NCBI GenBank assembly: GCA_045650805.1
Contig: JAZRRO010000059.1
Coordinates: forward strand, 1,472 to 65,471
DNA length: 64,000 bases
Reading direction: 5' to 3'
From: Akkermansia sp.
GTDB taxonomy: Bacteria > Verrucomicrobiota > Verrucomicrobiia > Verrucomicrobiales > Akkermansiaceae
The translations under genes were made by a program, and so were the position numbers. Below the pieces are notes generated by a model. It worked only from the letters and a program-made list of their open reading frames with translations, searched no databases and was not told the origin of the DNA. Of this stretch, positions 37,454 through 47,410 are shown in pieces. How positions within the stretch are numbered: the first letter of the stretch is position 1; every line of letters begins with the position of its first letter.

Positions 37454-37507
37454 TGAAAACAGAAAAGCTCCTCGAGTGAGGAGCTTGAAGAGCGGGCGAT
37501 GGGATTC
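37444..37507 (-). repeat. Direct repeat copy 2 (64 nt): terminator plus the 3' end of the functional tRNA-Gly copy
   Basis: See 37272-37335. Confidence 0.9.
37455..37486 (-). terminator. Rho-independent terminator after the tRNA-Gly array
   Basis: Minus strand reads AAGCTCCTC-ACTC-GAGGAGCTT followed by TTCTGTTTTC. Confidence 0.8.
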
Positions 37508-37562
37508 GAACCCACGACATCAACCTTGGCAAGGTTGCGCTCTACCACTGAGCTACGCCCGC
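37491..37562 (-). tRNA. tRNA-Gly (anticodon GCC), copy 1
   Basis: Reverse complement reads GCGGGCGTAGCTCAGTGGTAGAGCGCAACCTTGCCAAGGTTGATGTCGTGGGTTCGAATCCCATCGCCCGCT. Full cloverleaf with anticodon loop TTGCCAA; CCA is not encoded. Confidence 0.95.
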
Positions 37563-37602
37563 ATGTCATTGGCTTGCAATATGCGGAGCCGACATCTTGG
37601 AG

Positions 37603-37674
37603 AGCGGGCGATGGGATTCGAACCCACGACATCAACCTTGGCAAGGTTGCGCTCTACCACTGAGCTACGCCCGC
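37603..37674 (-). tRNA. tRNA-Gly (anticodon GCC), copy 2
   Basis: Identical 72-nt sequence, 40-nt spacer. Confidence 0.95.
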
Positions 37675-37717
37675 ATGTCATCGGAACGTTTGGTGTACGT
37701 CCGGCTGGTTTTTTGAG

Positions 37718-37789
37718 AGCGGGCGATGGGATTCGAACCCACGACATCAACCTTGGCAAGGTTGCGCTCTACCACTGAGCTACGCCCGC
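37718..37789 (-). tRNA. tRNA-Gly (anticodon GCC), copy 3
   Basis: Identical 72-nt sequence, 43-nt spacer. Confidence 0.95.
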
Positions 37790-43696: not shown

Positions 43697-45586
43697 TCAG
43701 ATGACAAGACCGCGCAGCAGAAGCTCGGCATTGTTTTGCGTGCGTGCGATATTTTTTAGCAGCGCTTCCAAGGCCTCCCAACCGGGCTGTGCTGCGAGTT
43801 GGCGGCGCAGTTGCAGAATGCGCGTCATTTCATCGGGGTGATACAGGCGGTCATCATTGCGCGTGCCACTCTGGGGAATGGAGATAGCAGGGTAGATGCG
43901 GCGCTCTGCCAGCTCACGGTCAAGTCGAATCTCCATGTTACCTGTGCCCTTGAACTCCTCGAAGATGATTTCATCCATGCGGGATTCCGTATCGACCAAG
44001 CACGTGGCCACGATGGTGAGGCTACCGCCTTCTTCCACATTGCGGGCCGCGCCAAAGAACTTGCGGGGCTTCTCCAGGGCATTGGAACCCAAACCACCGG
44101 ACATCACTCGGCCTCCGCTCTGGTTTGCATTGTAGCCGCGGGAAAGGCGGGTGAGCGAATCCAGCATGATGATGACATCTTTCCCTTGTTCTACCAGGCG
44201 GCGGGCGCGTTCCAGTACCAAATCACTCAGCTGCGCATGGCGGCGGGAGGGTTCATCAAAGGTCGAGGCGTATACCGGTGCATCCACCGTCTCTTCAAAA
44301 TCAGTCACTTCTTCGGGGCGCTCATCCAACAGAAGAATCAACAGCTGCGCCTCCGGGTAATTTGCGCGTATGCAGCGCGCCATCGTTTTAAGCAATACAG
44401 TCTTGCCACCGCGGGGAGGGGCGACCACCAATGCTCGTTGGCCCATGCCGAGCGGCGTGATGAGATCCAACACGCGCATGGCAGGAGATTTGATGTCGGC
44501 ATTCTCAAGAATCAGGCGTTCGCGTGGGAAGAGCGGGGTGAGCTTGTCGAACTCTTTCTTCTGCACGTAGTCAGCTGCGGGTACACCCTCAATCTCCAAC
44601 ACCTCTGCGGCCCCTATGTAGCGTTCCGGTCGCCCCTTATCCGGGCGCAGCGCCACCTTGATTTGGTTGCCTGGGCGCAGTTCATATCGACGAATCAAGT
44701 CGGAAGACATGTATATATCATCCGCACCTGGTCGGAAACTGCGGGCTTCATCTCGCAGCAGCGAGAAACCTTCTGGATTCACCTCCAGAACACCTGTCAC
44801 CTGCACCTGGCTGCCTTCTGCAAGATAGCTGCGGGCCATTTCAGCCACCAGCTCGGCGCGCGTGAGATTGCCACTTGCCTGGTGAGAAAGCGCGGTGGCG
44901 CGCTTTTGCAATTCATTGAGGGGCAGGGCGCGCAGCTCATTCAGGTTGATGATGATAGAGCGAGCGTGCATTACCTTGGCGTCCTTGGCCAACTCGGCAT
45001 CATAGAACATCTGCACTTGTTGGCGCAGGCTTTCCTGCGTGCTTTCGTTCCAGAACACCACATCGGCTCGGTCAATCTTCTCCTGCGTGGGCATCTGCGC
45101 TGCCATCATGGCCACGGCCTCATCGCGGGTAAAGCCATTGCGCTCTGCCATGCGTGCAATCTGAGTCTCCGGCGAGGCTGCCACCACGCACACCTTATCA
45201 GCGCCGAACTCCACGGGGCTTTCGTAGTAAAGGGGAATATCAACAAGGAACGTGTGTACATCATTGCGGCGTCGAGCCTCCGATTGGGCTGCCAAGCACA
45301 TTTGTGCCAGCTTAGGATGCGTGATTTCCTCCAAACGATGGCGACCGGCTGCATCATTCTGCACAATGGAACGCAGGTAATCTTTGTTGACAGCGCCTTC
45401 GGCATCCAAAGCATCCGCCCCGAATGCGGCCACTAAATCACGGGAAAGACGACCATTACGCTGCAATTCGGCCACAGCTTTGTCGCAATCAAAAAGCTCC
45501 ACGCCTTCTCCTCCCATTTCTGCAAGCATTTGCACCACGGTCGATTTGCCGGATGCTATGCCACCTGTCACTACGATTACCTTCAC
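43697..45586 (-). CDS. rho: Single ORF fusing dephospho-CoA kinase (aa 1-~200) to a complete transcription termination factor Rho (aa 206-629)
   Basis: GTG start; CoaE P-loop [11 protein letters not shown]. Rho part starts at M206 (codon 44971-44969): [41 protein letters not shown]. No stop codon lies between the domains. Confidence 0.85.
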
Positions 45587-45593
45587 GGGGCTT

Positions 45594-45622
45594 ATACTAG
45601 CATGTTATCCTGCTTGTAGCAA
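45594..45622 (-). promoter_or_regulatory. Sigma70-type promoter candidate (TTGCTA-N17-TAGTAT) abutting the coaE-rho GTG start
   Basis: The -10 ends 7 nt before the GTG at 45586-45584. Confidence 0.55.
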
Positions 45623-45648
45623 GCGGAAAGCGTGTACTCCTCCGCACT

Positions 45649-45739
45649 CCGAAGCCGCAACGCGGCAGAGATTTCATCTGAACAGATTTCACCGGCTTGC
45701 CAGAGCCGATTTCACCCGAGCGCAGCGAGGATTTCACAT
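45649..45739 (+). repeat. Arm A, copy 1 (91 nt, four direct GATTTCA heptamers)
   Basis: 90/91 identical to 45844-45934. Heptamers at 45670, 45685, 45708 and 45730. Confidence 0.95.
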
Positions 45740-45744
45740 TATCA

Positions 45745-45858
45745 TTCAGCAGTGAAACTTCGCCCTGCGGGCTCAATGAAATCTGGCGGTGAAACCCTGC
45801 GGATGAAATCCTCCATCTCTGCGAGATGTCGGGTCCATGACCACCGAAGCCGCAACGC
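45745..45858 (+). repeat. Arm B, copy 1 (114 nt, four TGAAA(T/C)C heptamers, complementary to the arm A motif)
   Basis: 111/114 identical to 46355-46468. Heptamers at 45753, 45777, 45790 and 45804. Confidence 0.95.
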
Positions 45859-45934
45859 GGCAGAGATTTCATCTGAATAGATTTCACCGGCTTGCCAGAG
45901 CCGATTTCACCCGAGCGCAGCGAGGATTTCACAT
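45844..45934 (+). repeat. Arm A, copy 2
   Basis: See 45649-45739. Its first 15 nt are shared with the end of arm B copy 1. Confidence 0.95.
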
Positions 45935-45972
45935 CTACAGATGAAGATAAAGCTGGTAATGACGAAAGAAAA

Positions 45973-46350
45973 ATGTACAATAACAATATGGGCGAGCAGA
46001 AGAAAGGGAAACTTATCCGTTTATCCATCGCATTCTCTGTCAAGGTGATTGCATTGCACGATAGAATCAATCAAAAAGGATTCTTAAAGAACCAGCTTGC
46101 TCGTGCTGCAACTGCAATTGGTGCAAATATTCATGAGGCTGATTATGCTGAAAGTCGGAGTGACTTTATTCATAAACTCAAAATTGCGCTCAAAGAATGT
46201 CACGAGTCTGAATATTGGCTCATGGTGTTAGCCGAAAGCTGTCCTGAATTGGCAGAAGAGGCTCATATGCTCAGACATGATGCCGGAGGTATACGCTATA
46301 TGTTGATAGCTAGTATCAATACATGTCTTCAAGGTGAGAAGTATTCATAA
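45973..46350 (+). CDS. Four-helix-bundle protein (23S rRNA intervening-sequence protein / Avd-like family)
   Basis: 125 aa; LARAATAIGANIHEADYAESRSDFIHKLKIALKECHESEYWL matches the family pattern Q..RAa.SI.aNIaEg..r.s..dF...l.iA.gS..E. Alternative start at 45988. Confidence 0.75.
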   Translation: MYNNNMGEQKKGKLIRLSIAFSVKVIALHDRINQKGFLKNQLARAATAIGANIHEADYAESRSDFIHKLKIALKECHESEYWLMVLAESCPELAEEAHMLRHDAGGIRYMLIASINTCLQGEKYS

Positions 46351-46354
46351 CTGT

Positions 46355-46468
46355 TTCAGCAGTGAAACTTCGCCCTGCGAGCTCAATGAAATCTGGCGGT
46401 GAAACCCTGCGGATGAAATCCTCCATCTCTGCGAGATGTCGGGTCCATGGTCACCGAAGCCGCAACGC
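46355..46468 (+). repeat. Arm B, copy 2
   Basis: Ends exactly at the stop codon of the transglutaminase-like gene (46469-46471). Confidence 0.95.
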
Positions 46469-47410
46469 TTACTCTTCCATCTCCGCGCGCAGGCGCAAGA
46501 TTTGCACAGGCGCCGCCGTGGCTTGGACGCGGCGCTGGCGTTGGCTGCCTTGCAAGCGCAGGAAGTAGGTGCCACCATGGGGAAGATTGAGCGGTGACAT
46601 GCGTCGCATGTCATCGCGCTTGGTGGGCAGCGTGGCGCGTGCTATTTCTTGTCCATCAGCATCTTCCAGGTGGATGTTGATAGCTTCCGCCGGTCGGGGG
46701 TGAATATCCAGCATGAGTCGCTGGCAGCCCTGCGGCAGCCCTTTCTTTTCATACCATTGGCGAGAAAGCTCCAGATAGCGCTCTGTCACATCTTCTGCAG
46801 CAATGTGAGCCCAGGGATTCCACACGGCGGGGAAGAAGCCATCCCCCGAAGCCGGCGAAACGGCATAAACACGTTGCAGGGGATAATGCGGGCGCAGCAT
46901 GCCCAGATATTCCATCACCCATCCCGTGTTGAAATCCTTCTCGTTGAACTCAATCATGTGCCATTCGCCATCGAACCACGCCTCGCACCATGTGTGATTG
47001 CCGCGGATATGCCCCCACGAGCCAACGCCCACAGCGCGCGCCGGAATGCCGATGGAGCGCAACGCACACACCAGCAAGATGCTTTGCCCCGTGCAGGATA
47101 CTTTTTTCTCATCGAGCGCTTCCAGCGGATTCATGGCCGGGTGTCGGCGCTCGGTAGAGTAATACACACCCGTGGCTTTTGTCATATTGGCCGCGACGGT
47201 GAGCACAGCCTCGCGCGCCGTGCGGCAATCCTTCACCATGGGGCGGAAAATAGCCTCCAATGCTGCTCGCCAATCGCAGGGTACTTCATCCAGCACAGCA
47301 TTGGGCACCAATGCCGCCTGTTCGATGTGCCGGGGAAGCGGCTCACTCCACGGCAGCTGAGCCCACGCCGTGGAGATGAATAAGCACAACGCTGGCAAAA
47401 AACGCTTCAT
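46469..47410 (-). CDS. Secreted transglutaminase-like cysteine protease superfamily protein
   Basis: Signal peptide; core motifs VSCTGQSILLVCALRSIGIPAR and NHTWCEAWFDGEWHMIE (Cys-His-Asp/Glu). Confidence 0.75.
   Translation of the reverse strand: MKRFLPALCLFISTAWAQLPWSEPLPRHIEQAALVPNAVLDEVPCDWRAALEAIFRPMVKDCRTAREAVLTVAANMTKATGVYYSTERRHPAMNPLEALDEKKVSCTGQSILLVCALRSIGIPARAVGVGSWGHIRGNHTWCEAWFDGEWHMIEFNEKDFNTGWVMEYLGMLRPHYPLQRVYAVSPASGDGFFPAVWNPWAHIAAEDVTERYLELSRQWYEKKGLPQGCQRLMLDIHPRPAEAINIHLEDADGQEIARATLPTKRDDMRRMSPLNLPHGGTYFLRLQGSQRQRRVQATAAPVQILRLRAEMEE

Follow-up and report, generated by a model that had tools for sequence, protein, structure and literature searches.

A tandem pair of Gut-1-related heptamer arrays around a four-helix-bundle gene in Akkermansia, with counterparts across bacterial phyla

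Two described systems lie close to the locus reported here. Gut-1 (RF01706) was described in 2010 from 43 human-gut metagenome sequences as a free-standing small RNA (sRNA) candidate; it was known from human-gut metagenomes only and had been found in no organism with a sequenced genome, and no host, function or partner gene was assigned to it (PMC2864571). Rfam treats Gut-1 as a structured RNA with covariation. The second system comprises the intervening sequences (IVSs) of 23S rRNA in Leptospira, Coxiella and Brucella, which carry an S23p/IVP open reading frame (ORF), have a lower GC content than their host and form stems that are substrates of RNase III; they are regarded as selfish and horizontally transferred, with functionality and origin unclear (PMC4990558). 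Many bacterial genomes, moreover, show an unexplained excess of heptameric repeats (PMC4692102). Here we report that a 64-kb stretch of DNA, referred to below as the window, carries two tandem units, the first without an ORF and the second loaded, of a compact and widespread module made of a PF05635 gene and two inverted arms. The names of the homologues of its protein put the window in Akkermansia. The features of the array, in window coordinates, are as follows.

45649..45739, plus strand: arm A1, four GATTTCA(C/T) heptamers with short hairpins between them; 15-mer at its start; repeat family D2
45740..45744, no strand: 5-nt loop TATCA between A1 and B1, the site occupied by the ORF in unit 2
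45745..45858, plus strand: arm B1, four (G/A)TGAAA(C/T) heptamers, then a linker with the hairpin CATCTC-TGC-GAGATG; repeat family D1
45844..45934, plus strand: arm A2, 99% identical to A1 and immediately 5' of the ORF
45973..46350, plus strand: four-helix-bundle (4HB) gene, 125 aa, PF05635 and TIGR02436
46355..46468, plus strand: arm B2, a 97% copy of B1 with the third 15-mer at its end
45649..45663, 45844..45858 and 46454..46468, plus strand: 15-mer CCGAAGCCGCAACGC, which bounds the whole array and the two units

A repeat search of the window recovered arm A twice (91 nt, 99% identity) and arm B twice (114 nt, 97% identity), with A and B separated by 5 nt in unit 1 and by 420 nt in unit 2. 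GATTTCA was located on the plus strand at 45670, 45685, 45708 and 45730 in A1 and at 45865, 45880, 45903 and 45925 in A2, its complement at 45777, 45804, 46387 and 46414, and GTGAAAC variants at 45752, 45789, 46362 and 46399, which makes 16 heptamers across both units. Such heptamers are spaced by 13-24 nt with hairpins in between, and the array is thus not a head-to-tail period-7 repeat of the short tandemly repeated repetitive (STRR) or GGGAATC type. A triple GATTTCA run is confined to the array locus within the 64 kb, where shuffles expect 0, and the 15-mer occurs exactly three times against 0.24 expected. The arms, heptamers, spacings and 15-mer copies had all been reported in an initial annotation made from the sequence alone, and every one of these observations was borne out. 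The further suggestion that the 15-mer might be a target-site duplication is ambiguous, as it may be a mere phase marker of the tandem repeat.

The two arms are complementary, and pairing of 28 nt of heptamers is predicted to close a stem around the ORF or around the short loop, in agreement with what had been proposed at the outset. The A1-B1 unit was predicted to fold as RNA at -88.9 kcal/mol (z = -4.5); B1 terminates in the 15-mer common to A2, and the predicted fold pairs B1 with A1. The same A-B-A-ORF-B order was found in metagenome contig L001, an independent assembly of a related strain with 31 differences over 1140 nt, and the array of the window is therefore not an assembly artefact. 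The 5-nt loop sequence between A1 and B1 is not the same in L001.

The product of the ORF was assigned to the 23S-IVS/Avd-like four-helix-bundle family with scores above the curated cut-off on both profiles: 3.5e-16 and 59.8 bits against PF05635 (cut-off 33.8), and 2.7e-20 and 72.6 bits against TIGR02436 (cut-off 24). The low-GC 125-aa ORF had been predicted to belong to this family, and the profile search upheld the prediction. The GC content is 0.40 for the 420-nt insert and ORF, against 0.55 for the arms and the window. An alternative start at 45988, the one called in L001, would give 120 aa. The product also matched PDB entry 2rld (5.9e-19), and 2rld and 2gsc each contain five chains; relatives of the 4HB protein are homopentameric toroids (PMC4990558). 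The pentamer of the related protein Avd binds a defined RNA element (bioRxiv 10.1101/2023.10.23.563531). The residues invariant among homologues are N52, H54, E55, E75, E78, E80, W82 and R108. A HEPN-type RNase was considered and ruled out, since the Rx4-6H motif is absent.

All four arms of the window were matched to Gut-1 in an Rfam scan. A1 (45666-45739, minus strand) scored 39.5 bits with E 7.4e-6 and A2 (45861-45934, minus strand) 36.2 bits with E 5.1e-5; the match of B1 (45750-45814, plus strand; 20 bits, E 0.62) is weak, and that of B2 (46360-46424, plus strand; 16.2 bits, E 5.8) is not significant alone. The gathering score of RF01706 is 50 bits, and all four arms fall below it. Homologous arms in Akkermansia and Clostridia (L153, L145, L144, L161, L168, L016, L010 and L165, the L numbers denoting individual loci) reach 50-77 bits, and the window arms are therefore diverged relatives of Gut-1 rather than members at the Rfam threshold. 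Further Akkermansia loci displayed the order Gut-1(-)/ORF/Gut-1(+) at 31-45 bits. The window arms share with Gut-1 four (G/A)UGAAAU heptamers and three short GC-rich intervening hairpins, as well as the habitat of gut bacteria. Some degeneration is apparent in the window hairpins (CGGCT-TGCCAG-AGCCG and GCGCAGC for arm A; GCCC-TGC-GGGC and CATCTC-TGC-GAGATG for arm B). The arms had been taken for an imperfect palindrome of no known kind; judged by their sequence, they are instead diverged copies of the Gut-1 motif with ATTTCAC/GTGAAAT heptamers and short GC-rich hairpins. Unlike Gut-1 as published, the present copies stand in inverted pairs, are tied to a PF05635 gene and occur in identified Akkermansia and Clostridia genomes.

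The cleanest arms (L016, L019, L020 and Butyricicoccus L010) are built of modules, each a heptamer plus a small GC-rich hairpin, and the hairpin sequence varies from module to module. Heptamers are alike within an arm and the intervening hairpins have diverged; this is not what homogenisation would leave, and it indicates that the heptamer sequence itself is under selection. A perfect stem of 4 bp or more is possible in 73% of 305 distinct spacers, compared with 8.5% of shuffles. A MAFFT alignment of 55 arms lost register because hairpin lengths vary, and stems, loops and wobbles were counted directly in place of a covariance model. The description of the unit as a long imperfect inverted repeat thus holds for the complementarity of the arms and not for their grammar, which is one of four heptamers with small local hairpins.

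In total, 3563 homologues of the window protein were found. A scan of a genome collection seeded with the protein alone gave 80 loci, from Akkermansia, many Clostridia, Phascolarctobacterium and some metagenome-assembled genomes labelled Bacteroides, and 240 control windows were drawn from the same loci. A hexamer present at least three times on each strand was found beside the ORF in 69 of the 80 loci and in 6 of the 240 controls; with a threshold of at least four times, the counts were 41/80 and 0/240. Among 40 further loci from Clostridia, 25 have a Gut-1 match at the Rfam threshold immediately upstream of the ORF. Akkermansia homologues of 60-72% identity at other loci (after pgk; between sufD and a GH20 gene) have about four RTTTCAC upstream and four GTGAAAY downstream. 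In at least six phyla the arms lie at fixed short distances from the ORF, and the heptamers on its two sides match. The gene of the 4HB protein, which had been regarded as cargo, is on these data a signature of the module, found together with heptamer arrays in many phyla. No publication tying the PF05635/TIGR02436 family to Gut-1, heptamer or other flanking repeats was found in our literature search, and a class joining Gut-1, IVS ORFs and heptameric repeats was likewise not found described there.

The sequence of the heptamer changes with lineage, and about four copies per arm and the inverted layout are kept in Akkermansia, Clostridia, Bacteroides, Xanthomonas and Nostoc. At least eight heptamer types were encountered in the loci examined. 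Akkermansia lineages use ATTTCAC, TTATATC, TCTTCAC and ATATCGT; loci with TTATATC, TCTTCAC, ATATCGT or ATTTCAA were missed by the first regular expression, and their grammar is unchanged. The TTATATC loci L142 and L143 hold the nearest relatives of the window protein in the collection scan. Around distant homologues the inverted arrays lack hairpins and are plain period-7 repeats: (AATTGAC)4 ... (GTCAATT)4 flanking genes of Bacteroides and Anaerolineae, CCCCAAT/CGTAAAT from Planktothrix, TTAGTGA from Bernardetia and GGAAAGN from Treponema. Two Nostoc plasmid paralogues of 70% identity have (AATTCGC)5/4 and (AATTCGT)4/4, respectively. Xanthomonas has about 186 GGGAATC heptamer arrays per genome, many of them convergent inverted pairs (PMC4692102); from these arrays GGGAATC flanks were predicted for the Xanthomonas homologue (XCC0516 / 2gsc family), and the prediction was then confirmed by the order accB-(GGGAATC-type x4)-ORF-(complement x4)-accC. 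Protein columns tracking the heptamer type were also looked for among the homologues, but there were too few independent lineages and the signal was confounded by phylogeny, so no claim is made.

Some arrays deserve mention in their own right. In L238 (Treponema saccharophilum plasmid) the arrays are unusually long, with about 25 GGAAAGN-type heptamers and then the complement upstream of the 4HB gene (~440-700) and about 10 complement copies downstream of it (~1055-1140). In L245 (Nostoc flagelliforme plasmid pNFSY06; 17523-25194 and 35433-45475) each of the two 4HB paralogues has its own heptamer, and in the 50 kb a copy number of exactly four or five was counted for 9 out of 10 period-7 arrays. 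An unverified phage contig from human faeces (L242, MT835590) holds a complete B-A-ORF module. "23S rRNA IVP" is listed as newly associated with CRISPR adaptation modules or arrays in a terascale CRISPR clustering study (PMC10910872), and this association might stem from, or relate to, heptamer repeat arrays.

Two layouts of the module were distinguished. In Akkermansia, L178, Bacteroides, Xanthomonas and Nostoc the ORF has an arm to either side. The usual Clostridial arrangement runs from a tRNA gene with a CCA end through a bidirectional terminator, arm B (4-5 heptamers), a ~17-nt centre, arm A (4 heptamers) and a good sigma-70 promoter to a ribosome-binding site and the ORF, and the last heptamer abuts the -35 or extended -10 element (e.g., TTGAAA-17-TATAAT or TGnTATAAT). 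Both Clostridial arms are thus upstream of the promoter of the ORF, and an ORF in the loop of a processed stem, the architecture initially proposed, is not universal. What is invariant is that an arm of ATTTCAC-type sense lies immediately 5' of the ORF. A tRNA or transfer-messenger RNA gene on the same strand directly precedes the module in 41/80 loci, with its end at a median of 262 nt ahead of the ORF match and with many different anticodons among the tRNA genes. Other copies are inserted, often co-oriented, within operons: araD/araA, aminotransferase/DAHP synthase, hsdS/hsdR, V-ATPase A/B, ybaB/recR and accB/accC.

Several minor features accompany these layouts. At tRNA junctions the module begins 0-2 nt past the CCA end of the tRNA with an A-run/hairpin/T-run bidirectional terminator (L161, L169, L172, L187, L209, L153, L165, L010 and L091), and an identical terminator stem accompanies the module to different tRNA genes. 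The ~17-nt centre between B and A repeats the 3' half of the first arm B hairpin and co-varies with it (L161, L168, L172, L187, L221 and L157); this sequence would allow an alternative pairing enclosing the whole B arm. The 4HB gene terminates in AAATGA in about 20 Clostridial loci among the 80 (L164, L172, L179, L181, L187, L196, L202, L203, L209, L218 and L221 among them), and there a variable second gene starts with an ATG that overlaps the stop codon. The second genes encode GNAT acetyltransferases, NUDIX proteins, a P-loop kinase, DUF6678, DMP19-like proteins, lipoproteins and unknowns, and the overlap looks like cassette capture or translational coupling.

As in the window, ORF-less units were found beside loaded ones in tandem arrays of Akkermansia (L016, L019, L145 and L142), and Nostoc L245 has an ORF-less (AATTCGC)4-146 nt-(GCGAATT)4 pair at 0.8 kb from a loaded copy. 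The pairing of an empty with a loaded unit, which had been noted at this single locus, is hence recurrent. A collection scan for three spaced TTTCAC gave at least 120 matches, mostly giant-virus and AT-rich repeat noise; the real arrays among the matches listed were L046 (5000-5177) and L091 (9792-9884), two IMG/VR contigs with solo or ORF-less Gut-1 arrays, one of which directly follows a terminator in a tRNA-rich region.

Modules of 85-89% identity over ~580 nt, from the terminator to the stop codon of the ORF, were found behind different tRNA genes, one set behind tRNA-Arg(acg), Gln(ttg), Ser(cga) and Met and another behind Val, Trp and Tyr. Their downstream flanks align at random level; the module boundaries are sharp, and the ORF lies inside them. 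The 121-aa protein P0018 was found unchanged in at least three contexts. Such comparisons indicate that the module relocates as a discrete unit, and the initial view of the locus as a mobile module gains from them, with a mechanism that is itself conjectural. Two assemblies of one insertion in V-ATPase A/B (L236 and L237) differ by a partial duplication of the 3' end of the ORF and the 3' arm, which suggests an arm-mediated rearrangement.

The loaded unit resembles a 23S IVS. The ORF family is the same, the ORF has a low GC content, and in both cases the ORF is bracketed by complementary stem-forming sequences. On the other hand, IVSs sit in helix 9, 25 or 45 of the rRNA, whereas the window module lies between coaE-rho and transglutaminase-like genes, its relatives follow tRNA genes or lie inside operons, and ORF-less units and tandem arrays exist. 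The window arms consist of four repeated heptamers.

The arms also recall diversity-generating retroelements (DGRs). Avd, the accessory protein of DGRs, shares the pentameric four-helix-bundle barrel fold with the 4HB protein and binds a specific RNA element. DGR targets require a GC-rich DNA hairpin with a GRNA loop (PMC3240598), and the arm hairpins resemble it in their GC-rich, variable stem and conserved strand-specific G..A loop. In contrast to DGRs, the hairpins alternate with heptamers in arrays, and most of the hairpin loops are 3-nt GNA, not 4-nt GRNA. No reverse transcriptase, template repeat/variable repeat pair or initiation of mutagenic homing site was found near the window module (ORFs within ~2 kb: shikimate kinase-like, coaE-rho, transglutaminase-like and MiaB-like) or in the +/-2.5 kb flanks of the related modules inspected.

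The module resembles REP/BIME-RAYT and REPIN systems in outline, with one protein gene between inverted short structured repeats and many protein-less copies (single, in inverted pairs or in clusters) in intergenic DNA. Unlike RAYT, the module protein is a helical bundle of 115-125 aa with no HUH/Y1 motifs, and unlike REP, the repeat is an array of four heptamers, not a GTAG-plus-palindrome unit. No PF01797 gene is present at the window locus. The single one seen is in L016 (2559-3339), where a Y1_Tnp (PF01797) gene stands at the edge of the Gut-1 array within inverted repeats of its own of ~70 nt, different from the arms. These inverted repeats give sub-threshold matches to Rfam Acido-Lenti-1 on both sides, and L002 (997-1042) has a match that exceeds the gathering score; possibly, Acido-Lenti-1 represents the terminal structure of an IS200/RAYT-like element.

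The ORF-less unit is like a miniature inverted-repeat transposable element (MITE) in being short, flanked by inverted arms and adjacent to a loaded relative. A 15-mer direct repeat bounds the array, which occurs at one locus in 64 kb. The unit is unlike a MITE in that no transposase is present, the arms are internally repetitive and the direct repeat is ambiguous as a target-site duplication. Finally, the Xanthomonas 4HB gene is flanked by GGGAATC x4 and the inverted x4, and the Nostoc and Planktothrix 4HB genes by arrays of four heptamers, as in the described heptameric repeats (Xanthomonas GGGAATC, Nostoc GGGGA(T/C)T and cyanobacterial STRR). The Xanthomonas and Nostoc repeats were studied as G-quadruplex-forming simple repeats with no protein partner proposed (PMC4692102). 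The window subtype differs from these period-7 repeats by its hairpins between the heptamers.

The strand on which the arms act was approached through the hairpins. On the ATTTCAC strand, loops of the G..A type were found in 125/222 hairpins against T..C in 4/222, the closing pair is C-G in 187/222, and internal wobbles are 11:0 in favour of this strand. Triloops (GAA, GCA and GTA) are commoner than tetraloops, and half of the G..A tetraloops are not GNRA. We take the G..A loop with a C-G closing pair to be the pattern of very stable d(C-GNA-G) DNA mini-hairpins. Loop polarity follows heptamer orientation in both arms, so that no single transcript has the favoured loops in both, and it argues against, or at least complicates, the strand assignment of Gut-1 in Rfam. 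Nearest-neighbour RNA energies point the opposite way, with the Rfam strand favoured in 75/96 arms, partly through U.G and A-U pairs that extend the stems into the heptamers. A role at the RNA level fits the co-orientation with host transcription, the promoter-less insertion within operons and the precedent of rRNA IVSs. We lean to RNA as the functional strand for the stem and an insulation role, and hairpin loops resembling stable DNA mini-hairpins may matter for relocation.

The reading that we favour, at somewhat less than even confidence, is that of an IVS-like module that relocates and whose protein, as an oligomer, recognises the heptamer arrays of its own module. The arms are mutually complementary and would therefore form a stem around the ORF on any single strand, like IVS arms before RNase III cleavage. 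Heptamers that are alike within an arm and switch with protein lineage or paralogue point to a sequence-specific reader encoded by the module, of which the 4HB protein is the sole product. The number of heptamers is equal at 7-nt and ~21-nt spacing, which fits a single strand with hairpins extruded and fits a duplex poorly. In the mechanism that we envisage, a toroidal 4HB oligomer would read the heptamers sequence-specifically on single-stranded nucleic acid with the hairpins looped out; the paired arms would insulate the cassette or excise it from host transcripts, as 23S rRNA IVSs are cut by RNase III; and ORF-less units would be non-autonomous copies served by the protein in trans, on the model of REP/RAYT or MITE/transposon pairs. 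A broader and somewhat more doubtful generalisation would make PF05635 proteins the cognate sequence-specific readers, perhaps also mobilisers, of bacterial heptamer arrays, with autonomous and non-autonomous elements forming a class that unites Gut-1, ORF-containing 23S IVSs, STRR-type repeats and Xanthomonas GGGAATC, and with specificity evolving through protein-heptamer co-variation.

A number of observations weigh against the favoured reading. The loop and wobble signals favour the strand opposite to the Rfam GUGAAAU sense, in conflict with the RNA energies. The module proteins are only mildly basic (pI 6.3-9.0, 7.8 for the window protein), an arm has four heptamers whereas the solved relatives are pentamers, and the module encodes no recognisable recombinase, nuclease or reverse transcriptase domain. 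Coxiella S23p is apparently not produced in vivo (PMC4990558). Co-inheritance of arms and ORF alone could yield the correlation between heptamer and protein lineage, and L046 and L091 have arrays with no 4HB gene nearby. In the window itself, the array is present at a single locus, the ORF is antisense to both neighbours, and neither a promoter nor a terminator is predicted at the locus by consensus scans, which also missed obvious ones elsewhere.

If the favoured reading is correct, the module would represent a new kind of selfish element, tolerated after tRNA genes, inside operons and in rRNA without inactivation, and its protein and array a new protein-nucleic-acid recognition system of very small size, whose specificities have diversified in nature. 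The layout of a PF05635 gene with Gut-1 or heptamer arrays across phyla points to an undescribed relocating gene module, which may explain 23S IVSs and heptamer repeats. Gut-1 has had no host, partner or function since 2010, and loci of the window type supply hosts and a partner gene; the origin, mobility and ORF function of 23S IVSs have been open for more than 30 years. The questions of Gut-1, 23S IVSs and heptamer repeats could then be tested directly with a single protein and a handful of oligonucleotides. Annotation is concerned as well, since hundreds of genes labelled "four helix bundle protein" and of Gut-1 matches in gut genomes belong to a single unit.

The rival that survives best, though we hold it to be rather unlikely, is a pure RNA element: the arms would be Gut-1 sRNAs or an IVS-like stem, cut by RNase III or stabilising the mRNA, the protein would be unrelated, and the heptamers would be structural or a by-product of slippage. 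The entry of Gut-1 in Rfam as a structured RNA with covariation, the z of -4.5 for the A1-B1 fold and the energetic preference for the Rfam sense in 75/96 arms are all in keeping with it, and promoter-less, co-oriented operon insertions with arms abutting the start codon would guarantee a 28-bp double-stranded RNA stem. RNase III does act on IVS stems, and STRR heptamers are tolerated inside the gene for RNase P RNA (PMC4990558 and Vioque 1997, respectively). However, a processing stem requires complementarity only, yet the heptamers are identical within each arm while the spacers diverge. Moreover, polarity is tied to heptamer orientation, so that the favoured loops are in one arm per transcript; the Clostridial arms both lie upstream of the ORF promoter, just past a terminator; and the heptamer type switches along with the protein lineage.

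It is also improbable that the arms are generic repeats of the REP/BIME/STRR type made and spread by another activity (a Y1 transposase/RAYT or slippage), between which the 4HB gene merely tends to insert or persist. Tandem arrays with ORF-less units, the solo arrays L046 and L091, the Y1_Tnp gene adjoining the L016 array and the ~186 Xanthomonas arrays per genome, far above the number of its 4HB genes (PMC4692102), would all be expected from such repeats. They would not account for an association in 69/80 loci against 6/240 controls, for the fixed short arm-ORF distances and the agreement of heptamers between the two sides seen in at least six phyla, or for sharp module boundaries that take in the ORF; no Y1 gene was seen at the other loci examined, and the Y1 gene of L016 has its own, different inverted repeats.

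Equally considered was a double-stranded DNA operator, in which the heptamers would bind the 4HB protein or a host factor on the duplex and autoregulate the adjacent promoter. The constant position of the ATTTCAC-sense arm directly 5' of the ORF is what an operator would give, as is, in Clostridia, a last heptamer directly adjoining the -35 or extended -10 element of a good sigma-70 promoter. This explanation is nevertheless decidedly improbable, as one duplex-binding fold is not compatible with site spacings of both 7 bp and ~21 bp, depending on the lineage, and as Akkermansia, Bacteroides, Xanthomonas and Nostoc have the second arm downstream of the ORF. There are also ORF-less units and long tandem arrays, the spacers are palindromic with strand-specific loops, and the fold has no known DNA-binding motif. 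A type III toxin-antitoxin system (ToxIN-like) and CRISPR-like arrays were rejected as candidates; the repeats are inverted pairs of four heptamers, not direct repeats of 30-40 nt, and a nuclease-like partner is absent. Similarity by chance and an assembly artefact are counted as already refuted by the repeat statistics (triple GATTTCA and 15-mer), the structurally identical independent assembly L001 and the recurrence of the architecture in hundreds of kilobases of unrelated genomes.

In the window, the array is flanked by the following two genes.

43697..45586, minus strand: coaE-rho fusion gene, left neighbour (context, outside the module)
46469..47410, minus strand: transglutaminase-like gene, right neighbour (PF01841, 8.8e-12; context)

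The end of the array (46468) adjoins the stop codon of the transglutaminase-like gene. On the other side, a metagenome scan with CoaE gave only two relatives of the coaE-rho gene, L222 (88% amino acid identity) and L223 (73%); neither has an array upstream of coaE-rho, nor synteny on the far side. Homology of the flank with L222 stops ~2 nt ahead of the first 15-mer copy, which places the left boundary of the array. A -35 element of coaE-rho had been proposed near this boundary; the consensus scan of 45500-46600 found no sigma-70-like site, and the same scans also missed the evident promoter (extended -10) and terminator (bidirectional) of L161. The insertion sites of other Akkermansia copies (pgk and sufD/GH20) are absent from the window, and no rRNA match was obtained in its 64 kb. 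Three tandem tRNA genes, ~112 nt apart and with 74.1 bits each in Rfam, lie at 37491-37789 on the minus strand, with no Gut-1 match beside them. The coaE-rho ORF itself encodes 629 aa, with a complete dephospho-CoA kinase (CoaE) domain N-terminal to a full-length Rho termination factor.

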